64,000 bases of DNA from an uncultured Methanosarcinales archaeon (GTDB lineage Archaea > Nanobdellota > Nanobdellia > Woesearchaeales > GW2011-AR9). The position numbers were made by a program, and so were the translations under genes. Location: NCBI GenBank assembly GCA_964344285.1, contig CAYFMM010000003.1:67072-131071 (forward strand), in the 5' to 3' direction. Below are positions 7,077-60,690 of the stretch, in pieces. Each line of letters starts with the position of its first letter. Position 1 is the stretch's first letter. The notes under the pieces were generated by a model. It saw only the letters and a list, made by a program, of their open reading frames with translations. It was not told where the DNA came from and did no database searches.

Positions 7077-7177
7077 TTGTAGCTTTTTTGCTAGATTTCA
7101 CCTTTATTAGTTTTGTGATTAAATGGTCGTGTACATAAATGGTCATGTACATAATAGACCTTAAGATACTCTTTATA

Positions 7178-20588: not shown

Positions 20589-20707
20589 TTAGAAAAATAA
20601 ACCATAAAATTCAGGTTATAAATGTTATGAATGTAAAGTGTAAAAAAGACATTGTCACCCTTATTTTGATTCAAAAAACATATAAACGCATGATTATTAG
20701 TCAGACT

Positions 20708-23301: not shown

Positions 23302-23721
23302 ATGAGAAGAAACAATATGAATTTTGCTACAGGAGTTGACATAGAGTTAATAGAGCGTTTTGAAAAAATATCATATGAAGAAAAAAGGGCTTTTTATGAT
23401 CGAGTGTTTACGCAACAAGAGCAGGAGTATTGCATAAAAAAAGCAAAACCAAGCCAACATTTTGCTGTACGTTTTTGCGCTAAAGAAGCAGTGATTAAAG
23501 CGTTAGGAGAATTTGGAGAGATTGTTGATGCACGAGAAATTGAGATTATTAAATCAGAGATAAATGTTCCAAAAGTAGTAATTCATAACAAAAGAATTAA
23601 GGAGTTATTCCCAAAATTAAAGGTTAAAATCAGCTTAGCACATGCAGGGGGCAATGCAATTGCCAGTGCATTTTTATACAACGAAGGCTGTAGAGTAAAA
23701 GAAGGGGTCAGAAATGAATAA
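23302..23721 (+). CDS. acpS: holo-[acyl-carrier-protein] synthase (4-prime-phosphopantetheinyl transferase, AcpS-like)
   Basis: GVDIELIERFEK near the N-terminus. Length 139 aa. Confidence 0.6.
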   Translation: MRRNNMNFATGVDIELIERFEKISYEEKRAFYDRVFTQQEQEYCIKKAKPSQHFAVRFCAKEAVIKALGEFGEIVDAREIEIIKSEINVPKVVIHNKRIKELFPKLKVKISLAHAGGNAIASAFLYNEGCRVKEGVRNE

Positions 23722-26724: not shown

Positions 26725-27807
26725 ATGATTCCAGTAGCAAAACCAATACTTGGAAAAGAGGAACAAGAGGCGGTACAAGAGGTTCTTTGTTCAGGCATGA
26801 TTGCACAAGGAGATAAGGTTACAGAGTTTGAAAAGGCTTTTGCAGAGTTTACAGGAGTTAAACATGCAATCGCAACCTCTAATGGAACTACTGCTTTACA
26901 TGTAGCATTATTGGCGCATGGGATTAAAGCAGGCGATGAGGTAATAACTACTTCGTTTTCTTTTATTGCAACAGGCAGCGCAATTAAAATGGTTGGCGCT
27001 ACACCTGTGTTTATTGATATTTCTAAAGATGGGTTTATGATTGACGTTGAAAAAATTGAAGCAGCAATTACACCAAGAACCAAAGCAATTTTGCCAGTTC
27101 ATCTATTTGGCGAGATTTGTGAGATGCAAAAGATAATGGAAATTGCACAAAAGCATAATCTTATTGTAATTGAAGATGCGTGCCAAGCTCATGGAGCAGA
27201 ACTGAGTGAGAAAAAAGCAGGTTCATTTGGTACTGGTTGTTTCTCATTTTATCCTACAAAGAACATGACAACAGGCGAAGGTGGAATGGTTACAGCAAAT
27301 GATGATGTTATTGCAGCAAAAGTGCGAAAGAAAATCAACCATGGTTCTGTGCAACGATATTATCATGACGAAGTAGGATATAATTTTAGGATGACAAATA
27401 TTGCTGCAGCTATTGGGCTTGCTCAACTTCAAAAAATAGAAGGGTTTACAGCACAAAGAAGAGAAAATGCTGCTAAATTACAGAATATGCTTTTTGCAAA
27501 GCAAGGGATTGTTCTACCTAAGGGAGTAGAAGATAAAAAACATGTATTTCACCAATATACAATTAGAGTTACTAAAGAATATGAGAAAAGTCGAGAAGAA
27601 GTAATGAAATATTTACAAGAACAAGGCGTAGGGTGTGCTGTGTATTATCCTGTGCCAATCCATAAGCAAGAAGCGTTTGCTAAGCAGAATAATCTTTCTT
27701 TACCAAATACCGAAAGAGTTGCAAAAGAAGTACTCTCTTTACCTGTGCATCCAGGACTACGTGAAGAAGATTTTAAGAGAATGCAAGAGGTGTTTAAAGC
27801 ACTATGA
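26725..27807 (+). CDS. DegT/DnrJ/EryC1/StrS family sugar aminotransferase
   Basis: PLP aminotransferase motifs ATSNGTTALHVAL and FSFYPTKNMTTGEGG. Confidence 0.8.
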   Translation: MIPVAKPILGKEEQEAVQEVLCSGMIAQGDKVTEFEKAFAEFTGVKHAIATSNGTTALHVALLAHGIKAGDEVITTSFSFIATGSAIKMVGATPVFIDISKDGFMIDVEKIEAAITPRTKAILPVHLFGEICEMQKIMEIAQKHNLIVIEDACQAHGAELSEKKAGSFGTGCFSFYPTKNMTTGEGGMVTANDDVIAAKVRKKINHGSVQRYYHDEVGYNFRMTNIAAAIGLAQLQKIEGFTAQRRENAAKLQNMLFAKQGIVLPKGVEDKKHVFHQYTIRVTKEYEKSREEVMKYLQEQGVGCAVYYPVPIHKQEAFAKQNNLSLPNTERVAKEVLSLPVHPGLREEDFKRMQEVFKAL

Positions 27808-29741: not shown

Positions 29742-32700
29742 ATGCACGAAAATAGTATGAATAAGGATGGGGTTTTGGGAGGAAAAAAGCTACGTATTGC
29801 GTATTGTGGAGTAGTTGGAGATTTGTTTCATTACGGTCATTTACAAAGTTTACTCTTTGCAAAGTCTATTTCTGACGTTAGTATTTGCGGAGTGTTTACA
29901 GATGAAGTTGTAGAGACATATAGAGAAAAACCAATTGCAAATTTTCAAGAGAGGTTACCTATTTTTCAGAATTTACGCTGTGTAGATAGAGTAATGATCC
30001 AAAATGAAAGAGACCCTACAGATAATTTGAAACGGATTCATGAGGAGTTCCCTGATGCAGAGATTATCTTAGTACATGGCGATGATTTAAGTTACGTGCA
30101 CGGCTCAGATTATGTAAAAGAGATTGGAGGAAGAGTTGCAAAGCACCCTTATTACCAACGCCTTTCAACATTTAAGATTATTAACACATTACTTGAGCGT
30201 AAAGATAAAATCAAAGATATAAAATCACTCTCTTCTTACATCACAGATAAAGAAGACCTTGATGAAGAAGCAAAGCGAGGAAACAAGTTTATTATTTCAT
30301 CAAAGGCCGATACGTTAAAGGCGCTAAAACCATTATTAAAGAAGAGTAAGGTTGAAGGGTTGTATAGTTTTTCTGTACAAGAATGGGAAAATAGACAAGC
30401 AGAGATCATACAAGCAATACAAACAACTTTTGGCAATACTTTACTTGTTGTAAGAAATTCAGTGATTAAAGAACATATTTCTGCTAAATTTGATGATAAT
30501 TCATTCCCTTATTTTACAAAAATAGACAGTGAGAATAAAGAAGAAATAATCTCAAGTGTACAGGAGATCATTAGTGCATATGAACAAAATCTTGAAGAGA
30601 CACGACAGCAACAAATTTTAATTCAACCATCAGTAGAAGTAATGATTAAAGGAAATGCATATCCTTCAACCTCTGGGAAATATCTTTTATTGAACTGTGA
30701 TTATTTTTCCCAAGGAAAAAGAGTTAGAAATGAAACATTTAGAATTAGTCCAAAAGATAAAGAGATCCCTACTCTTATTGGTAAGGCAAAAGAAGCCATT
30801 GAGGAAATTCAAAGCCTCATTCCCAATATGAAATTGGACGTTAATTTTGCTATCTCTAAAGAGGGAGAGGTGTACATTTTTGACGTTAACTTATTGTCTG
30901 ATCTATTTGTGCATGGCTGGGGAGGAACAACCTCAATCCAGTCATTAGAATGCCATACACTTCGTTATGTTGATTTTCCAAAGAGAATTGGCAATGCTAT
31001 TGACCGAAGAATTTTTTGTGAGATTCGTAAAAAACATCACACTGTATATTTTGACAAAAAGGATGTAGAAAGATGGAATAATGAAGGAATAATATTGCTA
31101 GAGGCAAGAGAAAGAGAAAGAATAATCAAAGATAATTTAGAACAAATTGAAAGATTTTTTTCATTTTATGTAGATCATAAAAATACAAACTTTGCTAAGA
31201 AAACGGACCAAGAATTGTCTGTAGTTTATAGTGAACTGTTAAATCTTGTGATGGAAAATGGTTCATTTTTCCCTTACTCTAGAGAGGAAACTGTAAAGCC
31301 CATTAAAGATAAAGTTATGGAATTATTAAAAGGAGTACACAATCCACAAAAAATATTACAAAAATTAACTACTCCAGTTGAAGAAGATTTATTCTTACGA
31401 GAGCAAAAAGAACGTTTGGTCGCATTTAAAGATGGAAGCAAAGAGGGATTGATGCATTATGCCACACTTCATCCTTGGCGTTTTATCAATACGTATTCAT
31501 CAGAAGCCATTTATGAATTTTTAAGGCAAGAGCAACAGGAGACAAATCTGCAAGATTTGCAGCAAGAGATTACACAAAAAGAAGAAGAAAATAGAGAACG
31601 TAGAATTGAACAAGAGAAATTGTTTAAGGAGATTGATAATCATGAGCTGCAAGAATTATGTATGTTTTTACAGAAGATTGCAGTTGTAAGATTAGAGAAT
31701 AAAAATATTTGGGCAGGGTATGAGTATTTATTCTTAGGATTATTTGAAGAGATAGCATCTAGATTAGAGTTAAGTATTGAAGACTTCTTATACACCTATA
31801 GGATTGAAGAGATTAAAGAGTTTTTAATTGAAGGAAGAAAGCTTTCTTTAGAAGATATTACAAGAAGATTAAAATATTTTAATTTAGAAATTTTTCCACA
31901 TAGAACTATTGTAGGATATAAATTAAAGTACGGAAAAGAGTTAGAACATCAACAGCAAAAAGAAGGAGTTTTAGTAGGGGAAGCAGGAAACTTAGGCAAA
32001 GTAGTAGGAAGGGCATTAGTGGTTACAGACGATAGCATTAGCTCTTTGATGAAACTAAAAAAAGAAATGACTTCTGAGGACATTTATATCACAACTATGA
32101 CTCATCCTGCCATGGTTTCCTTATTACATAAGGCAAAAGGAATTGTAACTGACGAAGGAGGGATCACTTCACACGCAGCCATTATCTCAAGAGAAATGGA
32201 TATCCCTTGTTTGGTAGGAACACGTGTAGCCACAAGATATTTTAAAACAGGAGACATTATCGAATTAGATTCTTATAATAAAAAAGTTAAGAAAGTTGAG
32301 GGAATTGATTTAGCTACCTATAATGCACAATTGTCTCCAAAGCAAGAGGAAGAAGAATGTGATATCTCCGTATTAGAGATTACAAAACCAAAAATTGACA
32401 AAAGTATTCCATACACCTTATCCTTTAGTGAGCTTTTGGGCAAGGGGAATCTTGTTGGAGGGAAGGGAGCAAACTTAGGGATTTGTTTTGCTAACCATAC
32501 TGTGCCCGATGGTTTTAGTATTACTCGAAGATTGTATGATGAAATATTAGGTCAGTTTTTGGGAGAAAGGGAATTCCTAAGGATTGATTTAGAGAGTGAT
32601 GCAAAATTATTAGAAACTGTTAGAGAATTTATCAAAGATTATAAGTTTCCAGAAGAGTTAGTACAAGAGGTTGAAACAAGATTATCTTCATTAAGAGGAA

Positions 32701-33302
32701 AACAATTTGCGGTACGAAGTTCTGCTTCATGTGAGGATTCTGCGCAAAATAGCTTTGCTGGTCAGTTCAGTAGTTATTTAGGAGTTAAAAAAGAAGGCGT
32801 AATTGATGCAGTAAAAGATTGTTTATGTTCTGCATTCATGGAAAATGTGTTTTCATATATTGCATTAAGCAAATTAAGTTTAGAACATTTTTTTATGAGC
32901 GTTGTTGTACAAAAATTTGTTGAGAGCGAAAAGTCAGGAGTTCTATTCTCGCAAAACCCAAGTGATCCATTGATTGAAGGGTTTTGGATTGATGCAAATT
33001 TTGGCGTAGGAGAATCAGTAGTTTCTGGAGAAGTTAAACCAGACCAATACTTTGTGCATGCAATGGGCGTTGATATGAAAATTTCAGATGAGAAGGAAGC
33101 TTATTCTTATGCTTCTGGAAATCTATCTTCAGAAAGAAAAGAGGGAAGAGTTCTAGAGGATTCTGAAATTCAAGAGTTAGTTGATTTAGGAAAGAGATTA
33201 AAAGATTATTATGACAAAGAGATAGAATGTGAATGGGCTTATTTTGAGAATAAGTTACATTTGCTACAAGTCAGACCGATTACGGTAATAAGAGAGGAGT
33301 AA
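29742..33302 (+). CDS. multidomain enzyme: TagD-like cytidylyltransferase + central domain of unknown function + PEP-utilizing phosphohistidine swivel domain + PPDK_N ATP-binding (ATP-grasp) domain
   Basis: N-terminal HxGH motif (CGVVGDLFHYGHLQS, glycerol-3-phosphate cytidylyltransferase-like). Phosphohistidine motif GGITSHAAIISREMDIPCLVG near residue 800. C-terminal PEP synthase/PPDK N-terminal nucleotide-binding domain (LVGGKGANLG...FAVRSSASCEDS). Domain order is permuted relative to PEP synthase. Confidence 0.6.
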   Translation: MHENSMNKDGVLGGKKLRIAYCGVVGDLFHYGHLQSLLFAKSISDVSICGVFTDEVVETYREKPIANFQERLPIFQNLRCVDRVMIQNERDPTDNLKRIHEEFPDAEIILVHGDDLSYVHGSDYVKEIGGRVAKHPYYQRLSTFKIINTLLERKDKIKDIKSLSSYITDKEDLDEEAKRGNKFIISSKADTLKALKPLLKKSKVEGLYSFSVQEWENRQAEIIQAIQTTFGNTLLVVRNSVIKEHISAKFDDNSFPYFTKIDSENKEEIISSVQEIISAYEQNLEETRQQQILIQPSVEVMIKGNAYPSTSGKYLLLNCDYFSQGKRVRNETFRISPKDKEIPTLIGKAKEAIEEIQSLIPNMKLDVNFAISKEGEVYIFDVNLLSDLFVHGWGGTTSIQSLECHTLRYVDFPKRIGNAIDRRIFCEIRKKHHTVYFDKKDVERWNNEGIILLEARERERIIKDNLEQIERFFSFYVDHKNTNFAKKTDQELSVVYSELLNLVMENGSFFPYSREETVKPIKDKVMELLKGVHNPQKILQKLTTPVEEDLFLREQKERLVAFKDGSKEGLMHYATLHPWRFINTYSSEAIYEFLRQEQQETNLQDLQQEITQKEEENRERRIEQEKLFKEIDNHELQELCMFLQKIAVVRLENKNIWAGYEYLFLGLFEEIASRLELSIEDFLYTYRIEEIKEFLIEGRKLSLEDITRRLKYFNLEIFPHRTIVGYKLKYGKELEHQQQKEGVLVGEAGNLGKVVGRALVVTDDSISSLMKLKKEMTSEDIYITTMTHPAMVSLLHKAKGIVTDEGGITSHAAIISREMDIPCLVGTRVATRYFKTGDIIELDSYNKKVKKVEGIDLATYNAQLSPKQEEEECDISVLEITKPKIDKSIPYTLSFSELLGKGNLVGGKGANLGICFANHTVPDGFSITRRLYDEILGQFLGEREFLRIDLESDAKLLETVREFIKDYKFPEELVQEVETRLSSLRGKQFAVRSSASCEDSAQNSFAGQFSSYLGVKKEGVIDAVKDCLCSAFMENVFSYIALSKLSLEHFFMSVVVQKFVESEKSGVLFSQNPSDPLIEGFWIDANFGVGESVVSGEVKPDQYFVHAMGVDMKISDEKEAYSYASGNLSSERKEGRVLEDSEIQELVDLGKRLKDYYDKEIECEWAYFENKLHLLQVRPITVIREE

Positions 33303-38456: not shown

Positions 38457-39278
38457 ATGAATCCATTCAAAATCATACGTACATATGGGATTAAAAGTAT
38501 TATTCAAAATATTTTCTCGTTAATGATTAGTGATGTTCATGTAGTGTCATTTGAGAAATGTGGCAGGACATGGCTTCGAGTGATGATTGCAAAGTTAATT
38601 GCAAAAAAACTAAAGAAAAAGAGATTAAATTTAGATACACAATTTATGACGTTAGGAAAAGCATTTCCAAATATTGTATTTTCACATGCAGGAGGAAATC
38701 AACTAAATAACAAGATTAATTTTAAGAAACTTTTCAAGAATAAAAAAATTATTTTTTTGGTACGTGATCCTAGAGATTTGATTGTGTCATTATATCACGA
38801 GTATACAAAGCGAAGAAAAATTTATGCAGGAAGTATTGCAGATTTTATACACGACAAGAAATATGGCATACACGCTCCAATTAAGTTTATGAATTATTGG
38901 GCAAAGGAAATGGAAAAAAGACCCCAAGATTTTTTATTAATTAGATTTGAAGATTTAAAAGATAATACGCAAAAAGAATTGCAACGGATTGTTGATTTTT
39001 TAGGTGTTAAAATCAACCAAGATATAATCCAAAAAGCAGTTGATTTTGGTTCTATGGAAAATATGCGCAGATTAGAACAAAGTAATGTTCTTAAAGATGC
39101 AAGACTAGCTCCTGTAGATAAAAAAGATCCTAATTCATACAAAGTTCGCAAAGGTAAAAAAGGAGGTTTTAAAGAGGAATTATCCTCCAAAGATATTGCT
39201 TTTGTAGAGGATTATATTAGAGATCATCTTACATTAAATCTAGAGTATTCAAAGAAATCCGACACCTCCGCAGACTAG
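38457..39278 (+). CDS. sulfotransferase family protein (PAPS-dependent)
   Basis: 5-prime PSB-like motif FEKCGRTWL and 3-prime PB motif FLVRDPRDLIVSLYH. Confidence 0.65.
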   Translation: MNPFKIIRTYGIKSIIQNIFSLMISDVHVVSFEKCGRTWLRVMIAKLIAKKLKKKRLNLDTQFMTLGKAFPNIVFSHAGGNQLNNKINFKKLFKNKKIIFLVRDPRDLIVSLYHEYTKRRKIYAGSIADFIHDKKYGIHAPIKFMNYWAKEMEKRPQDFLLIRFEDLKDNTQKELQRIVDFLGVKINQDIIQKAVDFGSMENMRRLEQSNVLKDARLAPVDKKDPNSYKVRKGKKGGFKEELSSKDIAFVEDYIRDHLTLNLEYSKKSDTSAD

Positions 39279-39415
39279 TGCATACCAGCTTGACCGGATT
39301 TCTGACGTTGCTCTTTTCCAAAAGATGATTAACTTGTATTTACATCTCGTGGCAAGAGCAACTTCTAGAAGATAGTACCATTACCTTTATAAGGGGAAAT
39401 TTTGCCATATTCTAC

Positions 39416-40210
39416 ATGAATTATTCTCGTGAGTTAGAACTTGCAAAGCAAGCTGCTGTAGAGGCTGGAAAGAGAGTTATGGAATATTATGATTCCAATA
39501 ATGCTAGTGTATATTCTAAAGAAGATAAAAGTCCTTGCACGGCAGCAGACCTTGCAGCAAATGAAATTATTGTTAAAAAAATTAAAGAAGAATTTTCAGA
39601 AGATGGAATTTTAACCGAGGAAGCAAAAGACGACTTAACTCGATTACAAAGAAGTAGAGTCTGGGTTATTGATCCATTAGATGGAACAAAAGAATTTATT
39701 TCACATAATGGAGAATTTACAGTAAATATTGCATTGGTTGAGAACAATGAACCTGTAATTGGCGTTATCTATGTTCCTGCACTAAAAGAATTATTTTATG
39801 GTTCTAAGGAGGGGAGTTTTGTAGAAAAAGACGGAGTTGTGCAAAAATTACAAGTTTCAACACGTTCAAATTTGAATGAAATGATCTTGGTAAAAAGTAG
39901 ATCTCATAGTTCTGCAAAAGAGGCACAATTAGAAACTCAATTTGCAGAGACTAAAGTGAGTGGAAGTTCTCTAAAAGGGTGTCGCATTGCTCAAGGTAGA
40001 GCTGATGTGTATTATAGATTTGGCCCAACTCATGAATGGGATATTTGCGCTATGAGTTGTATTCTTGCGTTTGCAGGAGGAGTTATGACTACTTTAGAAG
40101 GGAAATCTTTAAGATTCAACCAAGAGCAGACACTAATACAAGGTTTTGTAACATCAAACAATACAATTCATGAAAAGTTAGTAAATCTTAGCGAGGTACA
40201 AAATGGATAG
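39416..40210 (+). CDS. cysQ: 3-prime(2-prime),5-prime-bisphosphate nucleotidase (CysQ / inositol monophosphatase family)
   Basis: IMPase motifs WVIDPLDGTKEF and the later WDICA. Confidence 0.7.
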   Translation: MNYSRELELAKQAAVEAGKRVMEYYDSNNASVYSKEDKSPCTAADLAANEIIVKKIKEEFSEDGILTEEAKDDLTRLQRSRVWVIDPLDGTKEFISHNGEFTVNIALVENNEPVIGVIYVPALKELFYGSKEGSFVEKDGVVQKLQVSTRSNLNEMILVKSRSHSSAKEAQLETQFAETKVSGSSLKGCRIAQGRADVYYRFGPTHEWDICAMSCILAFAGGVMTTLEGKSLRFNQEQTLIQGFVTSNNTIHEKLVNLSEVQNG

Positions 40211-41006
40211 ATTAGATATGTTAGAAGCTCAGGCGATTTATGTTTTGCGAGAAGCATACAAGAAATTTGGAAAGTTAGGCATGTTATGGTCTATGGGAAA
40301 AGATTCAACTGTAATGTTATGGCTTGCAAAAAAAGCATTTTTAGGACATGTGCCTTTTCCGTGCATCCATATTGATACAACTTTCAAGTTTCCAGCAATG
40401 TACGAATATCGAAGTAAGATAGCAAAAGAATGGAATCTTAACTTGCTAATTGGAAAGAATGAAGAAGCACTCGCAAATGGTGTAAATTATGATAATTATC
40501 CTGCTCTTAAGGTTTGTGAAGAACTAAAAACAAATGCATTAAAGCAATTTGTTGAAAAGAATAAGTTTGAAGGTTTAATTTTAGCAATTAGATCAGATGA
40601 AGAGGGTTCACGTTCTAAAGAAAGGTTTTTTAGTAAAAGGAACGCTGATTTTGAATGGGATTATACTGACCAACCTCCTGAATTGTGGGATCAATTTAAT
40701 ACAGATTATAATAAAGAAGAACATATTAGAGTACATCCTATTTTGCATTGGACAGAACTTGATGTGTGGGAATATGTTAAACGGGAGAAAATTCCTTTAA
40801 TTGATTTATACTATGCAAAAGATGGGAAGAGATATAGAAGCTTAGGGTGTATGCCAATTACTCATCCAATCGATTCAAATGCACAAACTGTTGATGAAAT
40901 TATCGAAGAATTAAAACAAACAAAGGTCTCAGAAAGAGAGGGTAGAGGTCAAGATAAAGAAGATAAGTATGCACTACAAAAGTTAAGAGCAAAGGGGTAT
41001 ATGTAA
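40203..41006 (+). CDS. cysD: sulfate adenylyltransferase subunit 2
   Basis: PAPS-reductase-fold motif LWSMGKDSTVMLWLAKKAF. 8-nt overlap with the cysQ-like gene. Confidence 0.85.
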   Translation: MDRLDMLEAQAIYVLREAYKKFGKLGMLWSMGKDSTVMLWLAKKAFLGHVPFPCIHIDTTFKFPAMYEYRSKIAKEWNLNLLIGKNEEALANGVNYDNYPALKVCEELKTNALKQFVEKNKFEGLILAIRSDEEGSRSKERFFSKRNADFEWDYTDQPPELWDQFNTDYNKEEHIRVHPILHWTELDVWEYVKREKIPLIDLYYAKDGKRYRSLGCMPITHPIDSNAQTVDEIIEELKQTKVSEREGRGQDKEDKYALQKLRAKGYM

Positions 41007-41007
41007 A

Positions 41008-41214
41008 ATGGTTACAGAAAAAAAGAAACGAAGTATTGCAAAGGCGCTGAGTTGGAGAGTTACAGCAACATTAATTACAACAGTTCTTGTTTTTATATTT
41101 ACAGGTCAGTTTACATTAGCAATCTCAGTGGGGGTTGTTGAAGTCTTATTGAAAATGCTAGCGTATTATGCGCATGAACGTTCATGGGACAAAATTAACT
41201 GGGGGAGATTTTAA
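41008..41214 (+). CDS. small two-helix membrane protein (DUF2061-like) inside the cys operon
   Basis: 68 aa with two hydrophobic helices, tightly packed between cysD and cysN with overlapping stop and start. Confidence 0.4.
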
Positions 41215-43085
41215 TGGATAAGGCACTCAAATTTGTTGTAGTAGGTCACGTAGATCATGGAAAATCAACATTAATTGGTAGACTATTAGCAGATACAAAC
41301 TCAGTCATGGATGGTGTTTTAACAAAAGTAAAAAATACATGTCAGGAGAAAGGCATTGAATTTGAGTATGCATTTTTGCTAGATGCATTTCAAGAAGAAC
41401 AAGAACAAGGGATTACAATTGATACTACAAAGATTGAATTTTCAACAGATAAAAGAGATTACACTATTATTGATGCTCCAGGACATAAGGAATTTCTAAA
41501 AAACATGGTTAGCGGTGCTTCTAGTGCAGAAGCTGCATTATTAATTATTGATGCTAAAGAAGGTGTAAGAGAGCAATCAAAAAAACATGCATATATTTTG
41601 TCCTTAATTGGGGTAAAACAAATTTATGTGATTATTAATAAAATTGACTTAGTTCAATATTCTCAAGAACGCTTTAACGAAGTGAAATTTGAGATGGATG
41701 CATATTTACGCAAGCTTGGAATAGAAGCTCAAAAATTCATCCCTATTTCTGCTAAGTTAGGAGATAATGTTGCGATGAGTTCCTCTAATCTTGCATGGTA
41801 TCAAGGAGAAACTGTTTTAGCTGCAATTGATAATTTTACAAAGAGTGAAGAGATGCATGACAAACCATTACGAGTTCCTGTGCAGGATGTGTATAAATTT
41901 GATGCACGTAGAATTATTGCAGGAAGAGTAGAAAGCGGTTCAATTAAAATTGGAGATAAAATCACGTTATATCCCTCATTAAATACTACAACAGTTAAGT
42001 CTATTGAAGAATGGAAAGTTCAGACTGAGAGTAATCAAAAGAAAGCTGGAGATTGTGTAGGGTTAACGTTTAATGATGAATTCTTTTTGCAAAGAGGCGA
42101 GGTTATTGCAAGAGCTGATGAAAAACCAAGAGTACGCAATTTATTGCATTGTAATTTTTTCTGGATGGGTAAAGAAGATCTTGCCATTGGTAAAAAGTAT
42201 AAATTAAAGCTTAATACACAAGAAGTAGAATGCGAGATCCACACAATTAATAGTGTTGTTGACTCCAATACTCTTGAAAAAATTCCCGGTAAGCATTCGT
42301 TATCTAAGAATGATGTAGGAAATTTAGTTATTAAAACAAAACAACCAGTTGTATTTGATGCATTTTCTGAGATTCCAACTACAGGAAGATTTGTGCTCGT
42401 AGATAATAATATTGTGTGTGGCGGAGGTATCATTGAGAATACAAGTAATGAATTGCAACAACGTGAAGTTGTAGAAACTAAAAGTGAATTAGTATCTCCA
42501 AAACAAGGTATGGTGTCTAATCTTGAGAGAGAAAAACGCCAAGGCCACCGAGGAAAAGTAGTGTGGATTACAGGACTTTTAGGAAGCGGAAAGGAAAAAA
42601 TTGCCCAATATGTTGAGCGAGAGTTGTTTGATAAAAGGATGGGCGTGTATTACCTTGATGCAGGAAATATTCGTTTTGGGTTGAGTTCCAACCTAGATTA
42701 TAGTGAGGAATCTCGTAAAGAGCATGTGCGAAGGATTGCTGAAACTGCAAACTTATTTGTGCAAGCAGGATTAATAGTTGTAGTTTCTGTTGTAAGCCCA
42801 TATAAAGAACATCGGGCCCTTGCAAGACAACTTATTGGAGAGAATAATTTCATGGAAGTATTTGTTGATGCTCCAATAGAAGTATGTAAGCAAAATAACC
42901 CACATGGCATTTATTCTTCTGCAGATCAAGGAAAGATCTCAAGTGTTCCTGGAGTCAATTTCCCTTATGAAAGATCAGATTATTTGATTTATACATTAGG
43001 GATTAACTCTAGTGAGGATAATTTGCAAGAAAAAGCAAAACAATTAGTAGATTTAGTTTGTAAAGATGTTACCAAACAAGATTAA
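41214..43085 (+). CDS. cysN: sulfate adenylyltransferase subunit 1 (GTPase) fused to a C-terminal APS-kinase-like domain
   Basis: EF-Tu-like GTPase motifs [12 protein letters not shown] and DAPGH. The C-terminal ~180 aa are APS kinase-like, but the P-loop reads GLLGSGKE (no Ser/Thr after GK). Confidence 0.85.
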
Positions 43086-43671
43086 TGCAACAAACATAAC
43101 GTGGCACAAAGAGGCTGTTACAAGAGAAGATCGCAGGACACTTCTTGGAGTTAAAAACAAGGTAGTGTGGTTTACTGGACTTTCAGGTTCAGGAAAATCC
43201 ACGTTAGCAAGAGAAGTTGAAAAAGGTTTACATCAGCAAGGTGTCTTGTGTTATGTGTTGGATGGCGATAATATTAGACATGGATTAAATCAAGATTTAG
43301 GTTTTTCTAAAGAAGAACGAGATGAAAACATTAGAAGAATTGCAGAAGTGAGCAAATTACTATACGAAGCTGGTGTTGTTGTATTAGTAAGTTTTATTAG
43401 CCCTTATAGAAAAATGCGTGATTTTGCAAGAAACTTAATTGGAGAAGATTTTGTTGAAGTGTTTGTTGATTGCCCTATTGAAGAATGTCAAAAAAGAGAT
43501 GTTAAAGGATTATATCAAAAAGCGTTGGCAGGGGAGATTACAGGATTTACAGGAGTTGATGATCCATATGAAAAACCAGAGAATGCCCAGATTACAGTTG
43601 AGACTTCTAAACTTTCTATTTCCAAGGCAAAGGACAAAATAGTTAGTTATCTGCTTTCTTTAAACGCATAA
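43066..43671 (+). CDS. cysC: adenylylsulfate (APS) kinase
   Basis: Canonical P-loop [16 protein letters not shown] and downstream APS kinase motifs. Confidence 0.85.
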
Positions 43672-44350
43672 ATTGAGAGATTAATTTTCTACAGAGTTCT
43701 AAGAAGAAAAAGAGTGCATAAATGAGAAGCGTGTAGTGTGCATATCCAAATAGTACTCCCCAAAACATAAAGTTAAAGATATATTCTAGGCGTAAGAATG
43801 CAAAGATGTTGTAAAGAAAATTTTTTTGATTTACAAGTAAGGAACCTTGCAGACAATGAGCTACTTTTTCTTGTTGTTCTTGTGAACCATACCACTGAGG
43901 GTTTAAGGTGAGTGCTTTATTGAGCAAGAAACTAAAAACAGCTATTGCACCAGCAAGTAAGTAGAGTGGATTTTGCTGGATTTTATATACACCAATAGTC
44001 AAGCTTACAAGTAGCGTAGGGTTTGCAATGTAATGACCGATATAATCAAGATAAATTCCGTTTAAAGAAAATATTTTTTTGTATCTTGCAACAATACCGT
44101 CTGTACAATCAATGATAAAGAATGCTTGGAAGAAAAATAGGCCTAAAACCATTTTGTGCCACTGCCCCGTTGCTAGGAATAGAGCAGAGACAATTTGGCC
44201 AAGAATCCAAATTACTGTTATTTGATTTGGCGTAAGCCTTGTCTTTACAAGAAGCTTAGCAGGATAAAACCCAAGATGATCTACCAAGCGGTAGAAGATG
44301 TCTCTTCGGTTACTTGAGGCAACTTGTTTAAGCTCTTTAATTGTAGGCAT
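43643..44350 (-). CDS. CDP-alcohol phosphatidyltransferase family membrane protein
   Basis: Motif DCTDGIVARYK...G.YLDYIGH within a polytopic membrane protein. Confidence 0.55.
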   Translation of the reverse strand: MPTIKELKQVASSNRRDIFYRLVDHLGFYPAKLLVKTRLTPNQITVIWILGQIVSALFLATGQWHKMVLGLFFFQAFFIIDCTDGIVARYKKIFSLNGIYLDYIGHYIANPTLLVSLTIGVYKIQQNPLYLLAGAIAVFSFLLNKALTLNPQWYGSQEQQEKVAHCLQGSLLVNQKNFLYNIFAFLRLEYIFNFMFWGVLFGYAHYTLLIYALFFFLELCRKLISQFMRLKKADN

Positions 44351-44379
44351 CTACCCTTTAAGATATAATGCGGTTATAA

Positions 44380-45528
44380 ATGTTTCCGAAGATTGTTCTC
44401 ATTTGTATACGCCATCACAATAGATTAAATACAATCTTATTTCCAGAAGTTTTAAAAGCAGAGTTGAGCTCAAGAGAAGATATGAATATTGCAATTGATA
44501 TTTGGCACCCTTCAGACATCCATTTTTTTAAGAATTTTATTGCAATTATGAAGGAAAAGGGCCACAAGATTCTTGTTACTTCAAGAAAAAAAGATATCAT
44601 TACAGATTTATTAGATAGTTATAAGATCGAACATGTTGTTGCTAGTAGAAAAGGAGAAGGATTCTTTGGCTTGGCTCGAGAGTTGTTAGAACATAATTAC
44701 AAGTTATTCAAAGCAGCAAGAAAATTTAAACCAGATATTTTTCTAGCATTTGGGGGGATGAGTATCTCTCATGTGGGAACATTAATGAGAAAGCCTTCAA
44801 TTAGTTTTTATGATACCGAACATGCAAGCTTAATCAAGTTTGTTACACTTCCGTTTATTACAAAAGTATGTACTCCAGAATGTTATTTAGATAATTATGG
44901 GAAAAAACAAATTCGGTTTAAGGCATATAAGGAGATGGCACATTTAACGCCAAAATATTTTACTCCAGACCCGTCTATTTTAGAAACACTTGGTGTAAAA
45001 AAAGGAGAACCTTATTTTTTAATTCGCTATATTTCATGGAATGCAAGTCATGATATTGGAGTAAATGGATTATCAGATCAGGCAAAAATTAAGTTAGTGG
45101 AGATGTTAGAAAAACATGGCAAGGTGTTTGTGTCTGCTGAAGAGAATATTATTCCAAAAGAGATTGCAGATAGGGTGATTAAGATAGATCCTAAAAAGTA
45201 TTTTGACATATTGCATTTTGCAAAGATGGTAATTACAGAAGGTGAGACTACTGCAACAGAAGCTGTATTATTAGGGACTCCTGCTGTATACGCAAACCCT
45301 CTACTTACAGGAGTGATGAAAGAACAAATTGAAAAGTACAAGATTGTAGAACACGCAGTAGGGCAAAAAGCCGTGTTTGCTAAAGTTCAAGAGATGTTAG
45401 AAAATAAGGGTTTGCAAGAGAATCTTGAGAAAAAAAGAGATCAGTTACTTGCAGATAAAATTGATTTGACAAAATGGATGGTAGAATATGTAAGTTCTTT
45501 TGACGTACGTATTAAGTCAAGTGAGTGA
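44380..45528 (+). CDS. GT-B-like protein of uncertain function (resembles archaeal DUF354-type glycosyltransferase-like proteins)
   Basis: 382 aa with Rossmann-like alternation (IAIDIWHPSDIHFF...ILVTSRKKD). No definitive motif. Confidence 0.3.
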   Translation: MFPKIVLICIRHHNRLNTILFPEVLKAELSSREDMNIAIDIWHPSDIHFFKNFIAIMKEKGHKILVTSRKKDIITDLLDSYKIEHVVASRKGEGFFGLARELLEHNYKLFKAARKFKPDIFLAFGGMSISHVGTLMRKPSISFYDTEHASLIKFVTLPFITKVCTPECYLDNYGKKQIRFKAYKEMAHLTPKYFTPDPSILETLGVKKGEPYFLIRYISWNASHDIGVNGLSDQAKIKLVEMLEKHGKVFVSAEENIIPKEIADRVIKIDPKKYFDILHFAKMVITEGETTATEAVLLGTPAVYANPLLTGVMKEQIEKYKIVEHAVGQKAVFAKVQEMLENKGLQENLEKKRDQLLADKIDLTKWMVEYVSSFDVRIKSSE

Positions 45529-45674
45529 GTAGCGCCCATCGAGGTGCATTACGTGCTAGATGGAAACTAAGTAAAAAGACGTAATAAGGGGCACCGTGCC
45601 CTGCTCACAGGAACGGACTTAATATTACCTTTTGACAAAAGTCATAAATAATGCGAATTAGAATTGGAAGAGAT

Positions 45675-46232
45675 TTATTTCCCAGAGCAAAGTTTAAGCA
45701 ACATTTTCTTACGTGTGTGATTAATTGAATCCAAAAGTTCTGTTGAGTTTACAGATTCATTTTTTGCAATAAATTCATCAATTGTTGTAATTTGTTTTGC
45801 AGGGTTACCTGCAACAATTGTATTTTTGGGTACTGATTTTGTGACTACAGAACCAGCTCCCACAATAGCATTTGGGCCAATTGTTACACCTGGCAAGATG
45901 ATAGAATCAGTTCCAATAAAAGAATTATCATGAATTGTAATACGTCCTAATTTAGGATTTAATTTTTTTTTCAAGCCTTTGCTAAGCATATGAATTGAAC
46001 CATCATGTGTTAAAAGTCGTACTCCTCTTGTTAGCCAAACATTATTACCTAGAGAGATTAATTCTGGTTCACTGCCAAAAAAAATATTGCGGGCAACAGA
46101 GCAATTTTTGCCGATACTCTTAATAAGTTTCATCTTTCTAATCAAATTAGCTCGCTTTGTATTACTCATTACAAGAGAGATTCTAATTAGTTTGAGCATC
46201 TTTTTTAGCCTTCTAAGAGTGTATTTAATCAT
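45675..46232 (-). CDS. hexapeptide-repeat O-acetyltransferase (maltose/galactoside acetyltransferase-like)
   Basis: LbH repeats and a C-terminal IVAGNPAKQI. Start placed at the internal Met MIKYTLRRL, because the long N-terminal extension in the ORF track is hydrophobic and overlaps the divergent gene. Confidence 0.6.
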   Translation of the reverse strand: MIKYTLRRLKKMLKLIRISLVMSNTKRANLIRKMKLIKSIGKNCSVARNIFFGSEPELISLGNNVWLTRGVRLLTHDGSIHMLSKGLKKKLNPKLGRITIHDNSFIGTDSIILPGVTIGPNAIVGAGSVVTKSVPKNTIVAGNPAKQITTIDEFIAKNESVNSTELLDSINHTRKKMLLKLCSGK

Positions 46233-46358
46233 ACCACAGATAAGAGACAATTTCTTTTTAAAGATTATGGAGGGAATAGGCTTCATCTGGGAAGGAGTAA
46301 TATCCCTTAAATTATAGGGAATTAAGACGTAAAAAACACAAATAATAAAAATGCAGAG

Positions 46359-46880
46359 TTGAGAGTAAGTAATATGCGAAAAGAAGAACAACATTTACGT
46401 AAAATTAATCTTGGTTGCGGCACTGATTATAGAGAAGGGTTTATCAATGTAGAAAATAGCCCATTTGTCAAAAAAGACGTTGAATGTGACTTAAATAAAT
46501 ATCCTTATCCTTTTGATGATGAGAGTATTGATGAAGTACATGCATATGCAGTAATGGAAAATTTAGACGATATAGTCAAGTTTATGGATGAAGTTTATCG
46601 GATATTAAAGCCAGGAGGGATGTTAAAGTTTAGATCTGCTTTAGCATTTACATATGTTGATGCAAAAGATCCCACTCACAAACAGCATTTTATCCCCGGA
46701 ACGTTTAATTTATGGCTCAAGGGATTTAATGATCAAAAGATTAGTAAAACTCAATTTAAAGGAAAGTTATGGGTAACAATTCCTTTCTTTCATAAACTAC
46801 GTTTTCCAGCAAGCCTACATATTTTAAATTCTTTTGTTAACAACATTTTTACGGGGATCGAAGGAGAATTTATCAAATAA
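46359..46880 (+). CDS. class I SAM-dependent methyltransferase
   Basis: Motif I INLGCGTDY and motif post-I LKPGGMLKF. Confidence 0.6.
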   Translation: MRVSNMRKEEQHLRKINLGCGTDYREGFINVENSPFVKKDVECDLNKYPYPFDDESIDEVHAYAVMENLDDIVKFMDEVYRILKPGGMLKFRSALAFTYVDAKDPTHKQHFIPGTFNLWLKGFNDQKISKTQFKGKLWVTIPFFHKLRFPASLHILNSFVNNIFTGIEGEFIK

Positions 46881-46918
46881 AGTGTATAGAGTTTAAAGAG
46901 ATTTAGAAAGATTAAATA

Positions 46919-47860
46919 TTGACAATGAAGAAAACTAATCTGTTTATTGTAGGAGCGCCAAAATCTGGCACAACAACAATGTTTGAGTTGTTAAAGCAAC
47001 ATCCGGATATTTTTGCACCAGAGAATCGTGAGCCTAATTTTTTTTGTCAAGATATTAACAGATCTGTGTTAAAATATCAGAAGGTACGTTTTTACAATCG
47101 TTGGTTTTATAGAACATATGTTGAGAAATTAGAAGAATACAAAAATATTTTTAATAAATGGGGAGATGAGAAATATGCACTAGATGGGTCATCAGGGAGA
47201 TATTTATATTCTAAAGAAGCTGCACAAGAGATTGCAGAATTTAATTCTGATGCTAAGGTTTTAATTATGATTCGTAACCCCATTGACTTTTTACGTTCCC
47301 TACATTCACATTTTGTTACGCATTTTAGCGAGGACATTGTTGATTTTAAAAAAGCTCTTGAAGCTGAGAAAGAGCGTAAACAAGGAAGAAAAATTCCAAA
47401 AGGTTCTAAGTGTCCTGCACAACAGTTTTATTCAGAGATCTCAAAGTTTAGTGAACAGATTACACGTTTTAAGAAATATTTCCCAGAAGAGCAAGTTAAG
47501 ATTATTATTTTAGATGATTTTAAAGATGATATGCAAAAAGTTTTCCAAGAAGTTCTTGATTTTTTAGGTATTAATGTCACACAAGAAATCAATTATGAGA
47601 TTAAGAATGTGAATAAAAAAGTAAGTTCAAAGTGGATGGGTAAATTTCTTGTTACATATCCTTTTGTTTGGAAGTTTTGTAAGAAGATCCTTCCAATAAG
47701 TGTATATCAAAAAATCCGTAATAAAGTTATTAAGCCACAAAAAAGAGAAAAATTAGACGTTGATTTTAGAAAAGAATTAGAGCAAAGGTTTAAAGAAGAA
47801 GTTGAAAGTTTGAGCAAGATTACAAAAAGAGATTTACTTTCACTTTGGGGTTTTACATAG
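46919..47860 (+). CDS. sulfotransferase family protein (PAPS-dependent)
   Basis: 5-prime PSB motif VGAPKSGTTTM and 3-prime PB region MIRNPIDFLRSLHSH. Confidence 0.7.
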   Translation: MTMKKTNLFIVGAPKSGTTTMFELLKQHPDIFAPENREPNFFCQDINRSVLKYQKVRFYNRWFYRTYVEKLEEYKNIFNKWGDEKYALDGSSGRYLYSKEAAQEIAEFNSDAKVLIMIRNPIDFLRSLHSHFVTHFSEDIVDFKKALEAEKERKQGRKIPKGSKCPAQQFYSEISKFSEQITRFKKYFPEEQVKIIILDDFKDDMQKVFQEVLDFLGINVTQEINYEIKNVNKKVSSKWMGKFLVTYPFVWKFCKKILPISVYQKIRNKVIKPQKREKLDVDFRKELEQRFKEEVESLSKITKRDLLSLWGFT

Positions 47861-58080: not shown

Positions 58081-58404
58081 TCATAATTTCACAAAAGTTT
58101 CTGAGATAGTAACTCTGAAAAGATTCATTTTACTAAACTTTGAGGCCGTTTCTTCGCTTCCTTGAGGGAACGTAAATGTAATCTCTCTGCCTTTAAGTTT
58201 TTTAAAATGAAGATCTTTTTGGTCACTTGAGAAAAAAGAGTATTCTAACTCTTCATTTATTAAACTATGTGATTTGCCACCAATCATTTTTAATTTTCCT
58301 TTTTTAAACTTGGATCCGTTAAAAGTTCTAGTTTCAATATCTGTAAGCAAGAAGAAACGGTCATTGCTAGACCTCTGAAGTCTACCTTTTACAATTAATT
58401 CCAT
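58081..58404 (-). CDS. hypothetical protein
   Basis: 107 aa ORF. No motif recognised. Confidence 0.35.
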   Translation of the reverse strand: MELIVKGRLQRSSNDRFFLLTDIETRTFNGSKFKKGKLKMIGGKSHSLINEELEYSFFSSDQKDLHFKKLKGREITFTFPQGSEETASKFSKMNLFRVTISETFVKL

Positions 58405-58600: not shown

Positions 58601-60076
58601 CTATATCATCAACACATTCTGTTTCCTAATAATTGAAACTTTAACCCAATTTGTATAACCTAAAAACTCTCCTCCTGCTTGAAGAGCAAAAGGGGTTTGA
58701 CTCTCAATTATCCACTTTTTCCCATGTAAAGAAATTAAGGGAGCTGCTTCTATGCCTAACTGAGATAATAACATCGTCCAAAGGCGTAGAGCCTTATTCC
58801 AAAAAGAAGAGTGTGTATTAACAGTTGCCAAGCCATAAATCATATTATTATTTGTTTTAACTTCTTCTAATAAAGAACGCAGCCCATAGCCGATATAAGG
58901 GATTTTGCTAATGATTAAGTTTGAGCAATTCCCATATTCATGTTTTTTGTCGTCTATTTGTAAAGAAATATCAAAGTCAATTGATTTACCAAAAGCAACT
59001 GTACTTCCTGCATTCCAATAGTCAGCAAAGTTATGGTGCTTCATCCCCTCACTATGTTTGATTACTTCTGCATCAATTCCAATGCTTGCAAAAAGAGTTT
59101 GTGTTTTTTTTGTCTGATTTGCTGCCTGCCATTCAATTTCCATTATATCAAGAGGAATTTCTTTAAATTGAAAGCGTGAGCGTAGATATTCGAATTTTTT
59201 GCCTTTGTAAAAATAGGAGTAAAATGCGTTTCCAGCTCCAAGAGGAAAAAAGCCAAGCGGTTTTTGTTGTAATACAGGTTGATTAAGCGCTCCCTCAAAT
59301 GAACCATCACCGCCTGCAATAATCACTTGATCAGCATCTTTGATTTTTTCCTTTATCCCTGCAAAGATATCTCCTTTTTTAGGCAAGTAAATTACTTTTG
59401 CATTTCTTCTACGAGCAAATTTTTGTAGTAACTTTCTTCTGTATTTTTCTTTATATCCTCCTGATTTTCGATTTGCAAGAATAACTATTTTTTCTTTTTC
59501 AATTTTTTTGCCTACCTCGATTCTAGAGCGATATCCCTTGGTATATGCTATGACATAGTAAAAGATAGAAACTATTGCAAGAAGAGCTGCAAGTAGTGTG
59601 AAAAAAAAGAGTGCAATCTGATCAAAATGTACCCATAAGATATTGTGTGTACCTGCATAGAATCTGTATGTTTTAAGGACTAAAACAAAGACAACAATGA
59701 ATTGTGAAAGTGTAATTACTTTGCCATAAATATCTCCTTTAAGGACTACATAATCTCGTGAAGCTCGTAAGCGAATATAACCAACAATAATGTCTCGAAT
59801 TACAAACAGGGCAAGCAGTGAGAATGGAAAAAAACCACGTAGCGTAAACACTAAGAGCAGTACAAGAATTACTAATTTATCTGAGAACGGGTGAAAAAAG
59901 GAATGAATACGATCTTTTTTATGAATAGTGATCCTAGCAAGAACGTCTATTAAAGTAAACACCAGCAGTAAAACAAAGGTGAGTGTTGTTCCAAAGACTG
60001 TATCCAAATACATACCATAAACCATTAATGTGAGTAGAATTAAATGCAAAAATGCAATAAAGTTCGTTATCTTCAT
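58601..60076 (-). CDS. membrane-anchored lipid kinase: N-terminal polytopic domain (CDP-alcohol phosphotransferase-like) fused to a DAGK_cat (YegS/sphingosine kinase-like) catalytic domain
   Basis: About 180 aa with 5-6 TM helices (DVLARI...FSDKLV). The soluble domain carries IVILANRKSGG and IIAGGDGSFEGA (GGDG motif). Confidence 0.55.
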   Translation of the reverse strand: MKITNFIAFLHLILLTLMVYGMYLDTVFGTTLTFVLLLVFTLIDVLARITIHKKDRIHSFFHPFSDKLVILVLLLVFTLRGFFPFSLLALFVIRDIIVGYIRLRASRDYVVLKGDIYGKVITLSQFIVVFVLVLKTYRFYAGTHNILWVHFDQIALFFFTLLAALLAIVSIFYYVIAYTKGYRSRIEVGKKIEKEKIVILANRKSGGYKEKYRRKLLQKFARRRNAKVIYLPKKGDIFAGIKEKIKDADQVIIAGGDGSFEGALNQPVLQQKPLGFFPLGAGNAFYSYFYKGKKFEYLRSRFQFKEIPLDIMEIEWQAANQTKKTQTLFASIGIDAEVIKHSEGMKHHNFADYWNAGSTVAFGKSIDFDISLQIDDKKHEYGNCSNLIISKIPYIGYGLRSLLEEVKTNNNMIYGLATVNTHSSFWNKALRLWTMLLSQLGIEAAPLISLHGKKWIIESQTPFALQAGGEFLGYTNWVKVSIIRKQNVLMI

Positions 60077-60108: not shown

Positions 60109-60690
60109 TTATCTCTTTAATCCGTAAAGAACCCTACCATTTTCTGATCTCCCAGTTGAACCAAAGACACTAGTTATCGGCTTCTTTTTTCCGTTACTAA
60201 TTCTTGCATTTTCTCTAAAGGATCTAGCATATGCTACATTTGTAAACCCCTCTCTTAGCAGATCGCTGTTTCTAAAAAGATTCCCTTCCGTAAACTTTCT
60301 TGAAAAAATTCCTTCTACAGCACGTAATAGATCCGAATCTTCTTGACCACCCTTTGCAACGGTATAGGCGTTTCTTTTTTCAACCCACAAACCTGCATCA
60401 TTCATTCCGTAGAAAGCATTAGATTCAATTACATAACCTTCTGCTGTTTGGACTACTTGTTGTAACGTTATGCCTAAAGGACCTCCTTTTTTAGAAAACC
60501 TAGTTTGTCCATCTCTTGTTAGTCTTGCGTCTTCATTAATAGCATCTAAAGTAAGATAATCAACTGGAACTCCCATCAAATTGAAGTTAGGAATACCAAG
60601 CAAATGAAGTCTAATCTCTTTTCTATCTTTATCATATGCAACAGAGTCTAAAAGATCTAATTTTTTTACCATCTCAATTTCCGCTACCAT
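60109..60690 (-). CDS. hypothetical protein
   Basis: 193 aa ORF immediately downstream of the thermosome gene. No motif recognised. Confidence 0.4.
   Translation of the reverse strand: MVAEIEMVKKLDLLDSVAYDKDRKEIRLHLLGIPNFNLMGVPVDYLTLDAINEDARLTRDGQTRFSKKGGPLGITLQQVVQTAEGYVIESNAFYGMNDAGLWVEKRNAYTVAKGGQEDSDLLRAVEGIFSRKFTEGNLFRNSDLLREGFTNVAYARSFRENARISNGKKKPITSVFGSTGRSENGRVLYGLKR

Follow-up and report, generated by a model that had tools for sequence, protein, structure and literature searches.

A PgsA-derived membrane domain fused to a lipid-kinase-fold domain lacking the motif 5 aspartate in Woesearchaeota

Related proteins and architecture of the fusion

PgsA of Staphylococcus aureus (SaPgsA; PDB entries 7DRJ and 7DRK; TIGR00560), a cytidine diphosphate (CDP)-alcohol phosphatidyltransferase with the full name CDP-diacylglycerol–glycerol-3-phosphate 3-phosphatidyltransferase, and the lipid kinases YegS, BmrU and DgkB (PDB entries 2BON, 3T5P and 2QV7) are described counterparts of the two halves of a fusion protein that we analysed in a 64 000-nucleotide stretch of DNA from a Woesearchaeales archaeon, a tiny symbiont of the DPANN group (assembly GCA_964344285.1, contig CAYFMM010000003.1, positions 67 072–131 071; hereafter the window, whose own numbering is used for all coordinates). 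On balance, the best explanation of the fusion is a membrane-tethered, atypical lipid kinase that serves lipid salvage and in which a PgsA-derived pseudoenzyme domain acts as the anchor and probably presents the lipid.

Catalysis by PgsA takes place at the membrane–cytosol interface and involves the signature D57xxD60G61xxA64R65...G74xxxD78xxxD82, whose four aspartates are all indispensable: each Asp-to-Ala mutant is dead, G61S is severely impaired, Arg65 contacts the α-phosphate of CDP, and Lys83, Arg110, Arg118, Lys137 and Tyr181 bind the 3'-phosphate of the phosphatidylglycerol phosphate (PGP) head group (PMC8640168). YegS, BmrU and DgkB are soluble, stand-alone proteins, all with the aspartate of the 'DGE' sequence of motif 5 (Asp271 in DgkB), and human sphingosine kinase 1 (SphK1; PDB entries 3VZB, 4L02 and 4V24) has an essential Asp341 in motif 5 and no membrane domain. 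The mitochondrial acylglycerol kinase AGK (PDB entry 7CGP chain B) is a DAGK_cat lipid kinase with its own membrane segment, a single transmembrane (TM) anchor, and in addition plays a structural part that does not depend on kinase activity. Another precedent for a membrane-fixed DAGK_cat protein is the PAP2–DAGK fusion represented by the 546-residue NCBIfam model PRK12361, and membrane anchoring of this fold is therefore not in itself new. IPCT/DIPPS of Archaeoglobus fulgidus joins a cytidylyltransferase to a CDP-alcohol transferase; each of the two domains is active and has its active site on the cytoplasmic face. In a 2022 review of how archaea make glycerophospholipids, the DgkB paper is cited just for lipid extraction at the membrane surface and no archaeal DAGK-type lipid kinase is described, and our literature searches found no published description of a PgsA–kinase fusion in DPANN archaea.

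The fusion gene and its parts are as follows.

58601–60076, minus strand: complete open reading frame (ORF) of 491 residues plus stop codon, PgsA-like membrane domain and DAGK_cat-fold domain (ORF listing and two Pfam matches)
59519–60076, minus strand: residues 1–186, six-helix membrane domain of the CDP-alcohol phosphatidyltransferase (PgsA) fold, with a predicted N-in/C-in topology
59492–59518, minus strand: residues 187–195 (EVGKKIEKE), charged linker extending helix 6 into the cytoplasm (secondary structure of the model and sequence)
58604–59491, minus strand: residues 196–491, predicted cytoplasmic two-lobe domain of the DAGK_cat/sphingosine-kinase fold

The ORF begins with ATG, at a start that agrees with those of its homologs in the family alignment, and the G+C content around the gene is ∼34%. 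Public contigs as long as 182 kb carry the identical protein (P0001), and the architecture is not an assembly artefact, since more than 120 full-length homologs of 476–497 residues have the same layout. Both Pfam matches exceed their gathering cut-offs: CDP-OH_P_transf (PF01066) on residues 1–145 (26.3 bits against 22, E = 1.1e-5) and DAGK_cat (PF00781), the profile that the original prediction had named as a check, on residues 196–295 (40 bits against 23.6, E = 3.6e-10). The top NCBIfam match of the N-terminal half is pgsA (TIGR00560; residues 2–180), with 43.4 bits and thus below the equivalog cut-off of 109.1, and the C-terminal half gives weak matches to several NCBIfam lipid-kinase models, all far under their equivalog cut-offs. 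One of the known fusions, PRK12361, is matched by the kinase half only (33.5 bits against a cut-off of 505) and differs in its N-terminal part. The original prediction of a polytopic membrane domain followed by a DAGK_cat-type domain, made from the letters of the DNA, is borne out by the profiles, the fold and the family evidence. The superfamilies of the two domains are both known, and existing automated annotations name at least one of the domains.

The membrane domain

An AlphaFold2 model calculated from a 64-sequence alignment has a mean predicted local distance difference test (pLDDT) score of 90.8 and a predicted template-modelling (pTM) score of 0.87. It displays six long helices (residues 3–23, 27–51, 62–79, 85–107, 115–141 and 146–186) followed by a two-lobe α/β domain. 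The highest fold score is with human SphK1 (27.2; 293 residues, 2.8 Å), followed by BmrU (21.9), YegS (21.8), the DAGK catalytic domain protein 4wer (21.4), DgkB (19.5) and AGK (17.8); the TM half matches S. aureus PgsA with a score of 15.7 over 169 residues, NAD kinases reach 14.7 at most, and the Foldseek results are consistent with this ranking. A reading of the C-terminal domain as an NAD kinase (PF01513) was rejected, as Pfam gives no NAD_kinase match and NAD kinases score below all of the lipid kinases. Basic residues are concentrated in the loop 52–61 and past helix 6, which together with the six helices suggests an N-in/C-in topology. The kinase domain and the PgsA-type active-site cavity would then both be on the cytoplasmic side, and the domain may directly adjoin what was formerly that cavity.

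The original prediction had also noted a degenerate CDP-alcohol phosphotransferase-like motif in the membrane part, which the family alignments confirm. We carried out a motif census of 124 full-length family members, to which all counts out of 124 below refer. Two segments of the membrane domain are of particular relevance.

59876–59947, minus strand: residues 44–67, DVLARITIHKKDRIHSFFHPFSDK, degenerate remnant of the D1xxD2GxxAR...GxxxD3xxxD4 signature (family alignments)
59771–59797, minus strand: residues 94–102, RDIIVGYIR, with Arg94 and Arg102 equivalent to SaPgsA Arg110 and Arg118 (profile alignment to 7drj)

Canonical relatives read D..DG..AR........G...D...D, and the corresponding positions in the query are Asp44, Ala47, Arg48, Ile51, His52, His58, His62, Asp66 and Lys67. 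The query has thus kept D1 (Asp44), D4 (Asp66) and Lys67; D2 has become Ala47, the adjacent glycine Arg48, the Ala-Arg pair Ile51-His52, the following glycine His58 and D3 His62, and three residues are deleted within the signature. Of the four essential aspartates, which bind metal, two are missing. The complete PgsA signature is present in 38–39 of the 124 members (∼31%), one of which (P0053) passes the pgsA equivalog cut-off of 109.1 with 125.9 bits, so that the ancestral TM domain was a transferase of the PGP (or archaetidylglycerol phosphate) synthase type. This qualifies the original prediction, in which the membrane part was an anchor: it is indeed polytopic, but it is not a generic anchor, being a PgsA derivative whose catalytic signature is intact in about one third of the family.

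Could the query still be bifunctional, with an active N-terminal CDP-alcohol phosphotransferase that uses an altered metal site (His62 in place of Asp) alongside an active kinase? The retention of D1, D4 and Lys67 and a PF01066 score still above the gathering cut-off would agree with this, as would His62 itself, which is conserved in the query's clade and could in principle ligate a metal (histidine occupies the D3 position in 37 sequences, almost all within this clade). Several observations make it highly improbable, however. D2 is an alanine, the positions of SaPgsA Gly61, Ala64, Arg65 and Gly74 are substituted, and the signature carries the three-residue deletion; the SaPgsA mutants described above show what the loss of an aspartate or the substitution of Gly61 does to the enzyme, and Arg65 is the residue that contacts the CDP α-phosphate (PMC8640168). 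The pgsA equivalog score also drops from 126 bits in the canonical relative to 43 bits in the query. From these sequence comparisons we conclude that CDP-alcohol transfer has been lost in the query, whose activity as a transferase is very improbable; in contrast to PgsA, the query is predicted to be catalytically dead and has an additional C-terminal kinase-fold domain of 300 residues.

The part of the site that binds the product head group has been treated differently. Asp66 (SaPgsA Asp82, D4), Lys67 (SaPgsA Lys83) and Arg94 (SaPgsA Arg110) are each found in 121 of the 124 members and Arg102 (SaPgsA Arg118) in 120, so that the query shares with PgsA D1, D4 and the equivalents of Lys83, Arg110 and Arg118. 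The fixed polar residues round the former active site in the clade with histidine at D3 are Ser59, Phe60, His62, Pro63, Asp66, Lys67, Arg94, Asp95, Arg102, Arg107, Asp108, Tyr117–Lys119, Thr122 and Gln125. A pocket for a phosphate or a head group has probably been kept in the TM domain of the query, which may serve as anchor and lipid-presenting pseudoenzyme module in one.

Intact signatures are spread over the whole kinase-domain tree and occur in the outgroup, with at least 12 state changes (a quick neighbour-joining tree of the kinase domain only, with the changes counted approximately by Fitch parsimony), and the query is basal in a degenerate clade of ∼50 members. This scatter of intact motifs indicates that the transferase site was lost repeatedly while the kinase motifs stayed fixed. 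Identity in the TM domain, taken as a ratio to that in the kinase domain, is 0.75 in the degenerate clade with histidine at D3 versus 0.70 in canonical members; loss of the motif has therefore not been followed by relaxed constraint in the TM domain.

The kinase-fold domain and its candidate substrates

The motifs of the C-terminal domain were compared in a MAFFT alignment with ordinary DAGK-family proteins and Escherichia coli YegS.

59303–59317, minus strand: residues 254–258, AGGDG, nucleotide-binding GGDG motif, 124/124, aligning with GGDG of BmrU and DgkB
59225–59239, minus strand: residues 280–284, GAGNA, GxGN(D/A) motif 3, Asn283 in 124/124
59165–59224, minus strand: residues 285–304, FYSYFYKGKKFEYLRSRFQF, near-invariant, family-specific, aromatic and basic segment (conservation lists)
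59063–59083, minus strand: residues 332–338, IGIDAEV, motif 4 with conserved Gly333 and Asp335, Asp335 in 123/124, aligning with G(F/I)D of ordinary members
58778–58813, minus strand: residues 422–433, HSSFWNKALRLW, conserved start of the helix 424–439, with invariant His422, Asn427, Lys428 and Arg431 (alignments and model)
58667–58675, minus strand: residues 468–470, GGE, position of the motif 5 'DGE', Gly468, Gly469 and Glu/Asp470 each in 124/124

Motif 1 is also kept (Asn202 in 123 of 124), and the peptide IIAGGDGSF, in which the original prediction had recognized the kinase motif, contains the AGGDG listed above. The query has GGDG, GxGN, GxD and the motif 5 glutamate in common with YegS, BmrU and DgkB, and differs from them in an invariant glycine at the 'DGE' aspartate, in the covalent membrane tether and in two family-specific segments, FYSYFYKGKRFEYLRSRF and His422–Trp433. 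The first of these (residues 285–302) lies within the aromatic and basic segment 285–304, which has lower pLDDT values (59–73), has no matching conservation in ordinary DAGK proteins and may contact the membrane interface or the lipid head group. Bacterial YegS/DgkB-type proteins have a shorter version of the second. The residue after Asn283 is alanine, as in the 'GNA' of SphK1 motif 3, and not the aspartate of the bacterial 'GND'. A further likeness to SphK1 is that the basic residues after the motif 4 aspartate (Asp335) are kept, although the two proteins are only 13% identical, and sphingoid bases are not known from these archaea. AGK is comparable as a DAGK_cat protein with its own membrane segment, which is a single anchor in AGK and a polytopic domain here. 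Relative to IPCT/DIPPS, where the partner is an N-terminal nucleotidyltransferase, the partner in the present fusion is a C-terminal kinase fold and the transferase is degenerate.

The equivalence of columns at motif 5 was established from both sides. The MAFFT alignment places Gly468 in the same column as the 'DGE' aspartate (YegS NLDGE), and QCDGEY of P0161 aligns with VD-G-E of DgkB, whose chain residues 293–295 are native residues 271–273 after a 22-residue tag. By alignment, the assignment of Gly468 to the column of SphK1 Asp341 and DgkB Asp271 is secure. The stand-alone close relatives have glycine or alanine at this position, and two distant fusions (P0157 and P0158) read 'AGD'. Loss of the conserved catalytic aspartate or glycine residues, which the original prediction had regarded as evidence against a kinase, is therefore found in one motif and not in another: GGDG is intact and the 'DGE' aspartate is gone. 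With this residue lost, kinase activity is plausible but non-canonical, and the handling of Mg-ATP would have to differ from that in DgkB and SphK1. The invariance of the other motifs and of the Gly-Gly pair argues for a working, specifically modified site and not for decay.

Several points weigh against an active lipid kinase in salvage. The motif 5 aspartate is replaced by glycine in all 124 members, with only the glutamate (or aspartate) two residues on retained. In DgkB the corresponding Asp271 has reportedly been proposed as the general base. In SphK1, Asp341 and Glu343 were assigned to Mg2+ coordination, and D341A and E343A are inactive (PMC4466670). The tree and the number of losses are approximate, as stated above, the substrate assignment derives from the logic of the fusion and from the in vitro activity of a distant relative, and neighbour clustering over 80 loci gave no consistently adjacent lipid-pathway gene.

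The same observations on motif 5 would be accommodated by a pseudokinase or nucleotide sensor, in which GGDG binds ATP or ADP, no lipid is phosphorylated and the domain acts as a regulatory or scaffold module on the PgsA-derived membrane platform; this would be comparable to the structural part that AGK plays in the TIM22 complex independently of its kinase activity. The absence of the aspartate extends from the 124 members to the stand-alone close relatives and to P0157 and P0158, and the inactivity of SphK1 D341A (PMC4466670) is in line with a dead site. We nevertheless regard this explanation as unlikely. All of the other catalytic and nucleotide-binding motifs are invariant or nearly so despite divergence to ∼40% identity, a pattern that would be uncommon in a dead enzyme; the Gly468-Gly469 pair does not vary either and points to a specific functional geometry; and the partner domain, an intact enzyme in about one third of the family, favours a metabolic role.

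A soluble substrate is still less probable. The kinase would in that case provide the transferase domain with its phospho-alcohol acceptor, or have an activity of the NAD kinase type, and the protein would resemble IPCT/DIPPS, fusions of this type being a precedent for cytosolic domains that supply substrates to CDP-alcohol transferases. Pfam, however, matches DAGK_cat and not NAD_kinase, and a kinase that supplies an acceptor should decay once the transferase is lost, yet the domain is more conserved in the degenerate clade, with 109 kinase-domain positions conserved at ≥90% as against 84 in canonical members.

The membrane-tethered lipid kinase that we favour arose by fusion of a PgsA-type CDP-alcohol phosphatidyltransferase with six TM helices to a soluble DAGK_cat-fold (YegS–DgkB–SphK) lipid kinase, and its kinase domain would phosphorylate a lipid of the membrane at the expense of ATP. 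Among candidate substrates, phosphatidylglycerol (PG) or archaetidylglycerol (AG), which would be converted to PGP or archaetidylglycerol phosphate (AGP), is the most economical, because PGP is both the product of the ancestral PgsA domain and that of the in vitro activity reported for YegS; the latter is cited as a phosphatidylglycerol kinase in PMC10331486, which refers to Bakali et al. (2007). The retained pocket of Lys67, Arg94 and Arg102 fits the PGP head group. The main alternative would be phosphorylation of diacylglycerol or archaeol to phosphatidic or archaetidic acid. Woesearchaeota are without GGGPS and DGGGPS (PMC8421398) and have been proposed to modify host-derived lipids (PMC11868695); the lack of these core ether-lipid synthases is the reason for suggesting a role in the salvage or remodelling of host lipids. 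Neither CdsA/CarS nor any other core lipid gene turned up when the window was searched for them. A more far-reaching version, which we consider doubtful, is a DPANN-specific lipid-salvage device in which a PGP synthase has been turned at least 12 times into a lipid-presenting pseudoenzyme and serves an Asp-less kinase, a phosphate of the substrate lipid replacing the missing carboxylate; scavenged PG or AG would be converted to PGP or AGP, or phosphatidate to a lipid pyrophosphate.

Distribution, gene order and meaning of the family

A word-indexed search gave at least 221 relatives; the best 120 of them are nearly all 476–497 residues long, contain both domains and are 41–54% identical to the query, and their named sources are metagenome-assembled genomes (MAGs) of Woesearchaeota or Nanoarchaeota. 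An exhaustive search of 1.84 billion cluster representatives yielded only 34 clusters at E < 1e-30, comprising full-length fusions, fragments, stand-alone kinase-domain proteins (280–330 residues, 34–40% identity) and the two distant 427-residue fusions; the transferase signature is intact in one of these (P0157) and has a single change in the other (P0158, Ser for Ala of the Ala-Arg pair). A scan of one genome per GTDB species located 82 loci, all in MAGs of the Woesearchaeota/Nanoarchaeota type. Third-party assemblies carrying the gene (L007, L010, L011, L014, L016, L018 and others) are often titled 'uncultured Methanosarcinales archaeon', which on records of the Woesearchaeota type is probably a generic or wrong label.

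Across 80 loci the recurrent neighbours are a thermosome gene (58), histidyl-tRNA synthetase (52), a protein of the metallo-β-lactamase fold (43) and peptidase M24 (35). With this conserved housekeeping synteny the fusion looks like a vertically inherited core gene and not a mobile one. A conserved operon partner was sought by the same neighbour clustering and rejected, as it gave just housekeeping synteny and minority neighbours. A split-gene (Rosetta-stone) case was likewise dismissed: the 188-residue gene just upstream of P0140, a stand-alone homolog of the kinase, has no relationship to the TM domain (hhalign probability of 0.3%). In one Woesearchaeota MAG (L081) the fusion is read as two successive ORFs (6001–6945 and 7001–7534), for which a frameshift, a sequencing error and a genuine separation of the two domains are all conceivable.

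Two kinds of gene follow the fusion on the same strand in a minority of the 80 loci. An FA_hydroxylase-family gene of ∼210 residues is downstream in seven loci, directly next in six; the fusions at these loci are 47–51% identical to the query, and the window has no such gene. The family (PF04116) consists of membrane di-iron lipid hydroxylases, among them alkylglycerol monooxygenase, an enzyme that cleaves ether lipids. In nine loci, a polytopic membrane protein of 227–242 residues without a Pfam match is encoded downstream.

FA_hydroxylase genes: L008 6300–6932; L015 1688–2332; L017 8202–8825; L019 7530–8186; L020 6165–6809; L027 1750–2385; L044 3685–4317; also L003 7504–8133
Downstream membrane protein of 227–242 residues: L016, L019, L026, L049, L054, L070, L072, L078 and L081 (for example L070 7693–8418)

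The two genes adjacent to the fusion in the window, 60109–60690 (minus strand, 193 residues, 32 nucleotides upstream) and 58081–58404 (minus strand, 107 residues, downstream), lack matches in both Pfam and NCBIfam and show no homology to their positional counterparts in locus L003.

The window contains two further CDP-OH_P_transf ORFs, which lie in glycan and sulfation gene clusters. The signature of the first, DMVDGMIARLRGMSSVFGQWLDGVLG, has D1, D2G, AR, G and D3, with Gly at D4; in that of the second, DCTDGIVARYKKIFSLNGIYLDYIGH, D4 is replaced by His.

11835–12518, plus strand: stand-alone CDP-OH_P_transf ORF, 227 residues, within a glycosyltransferase cluster (PF01066, 46 bits)
43643–44350, minus strand: CDP-OH_P_transf ORF, 235 residues, between APS kinase and DUF354 genes (PF01066, 31.8 bits)

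A set of sulfate-activation and sulfation genes at 38457–47860, in a DPANN genome, suggests sulfated surface glycans or lipids.

38457–39278 and 46919–47860: two sulfotransferases
39416–40210: inositol-monophosphatase-family protein, maybe CysQ-like
40203–41006: PAPS_reduct-domain protein
41214–43085: GTP_EFTU and APS_kinase fusion, CysNC-like in appearance
43066–43671: separate APS kinase

Another ORF is an unusual fusion of a cytidylyltransferase to a module resembling phosphoenolpyruvate (PEP) synthase or a dikinase.

29742–33302, plus strand: 1186 residues, CTP_transf_like (residues 27–117), PEP-utilizers mobile domain (778–846) and PPDK_N (903–1185)

Positions 1–29700 form a large surface-glycan island, which also holds several GT2/GT4 glycosyltransferases and two UDP-GlcNAc 2-epimerase-like ORFs.

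3861–4952: NeuB and SAF
5004–7076: CTP_transf_3 and Aminotran_3 fusion
8119–9267 and 26725–27807: DegT aminotransferases
9334–10350: Polysacc_synt_2
15035–16519: flippase-like Polysacc_synt
20579–21766: LPG_synthase_TM
24007–25551: AMP-binding enzyme, adjoining a 4'-phosphopantetheinyl transferase (23302–23721)

What is new in the family described here is the PgsA–kinase combination, its limitation to one DPANN lineage, the repeated conversion of a transferase into a pseudoenzyme and a motif 5 without its aspartate. As a DAGK-fold clade lacking a supposedly essential residue, it is relevant to how catalysis works in the DGK/SphK family at large, and with intact, partly degenerate and fully degenerate transferase sites on an invariant kinase it offers a natural series for the study of pseudoenzyme evolution. 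For the question of how DPANN archaea such as Woesearchaeota get and tailor their membranes, the fusions are among the few concrete, testable candidates for a step of lipid remodelling. If the salvage device outlined above is real, it would give organisms without de novo lipid synthesis a way to form a phospholipid head group that is driven by ATP and independent of CDP.

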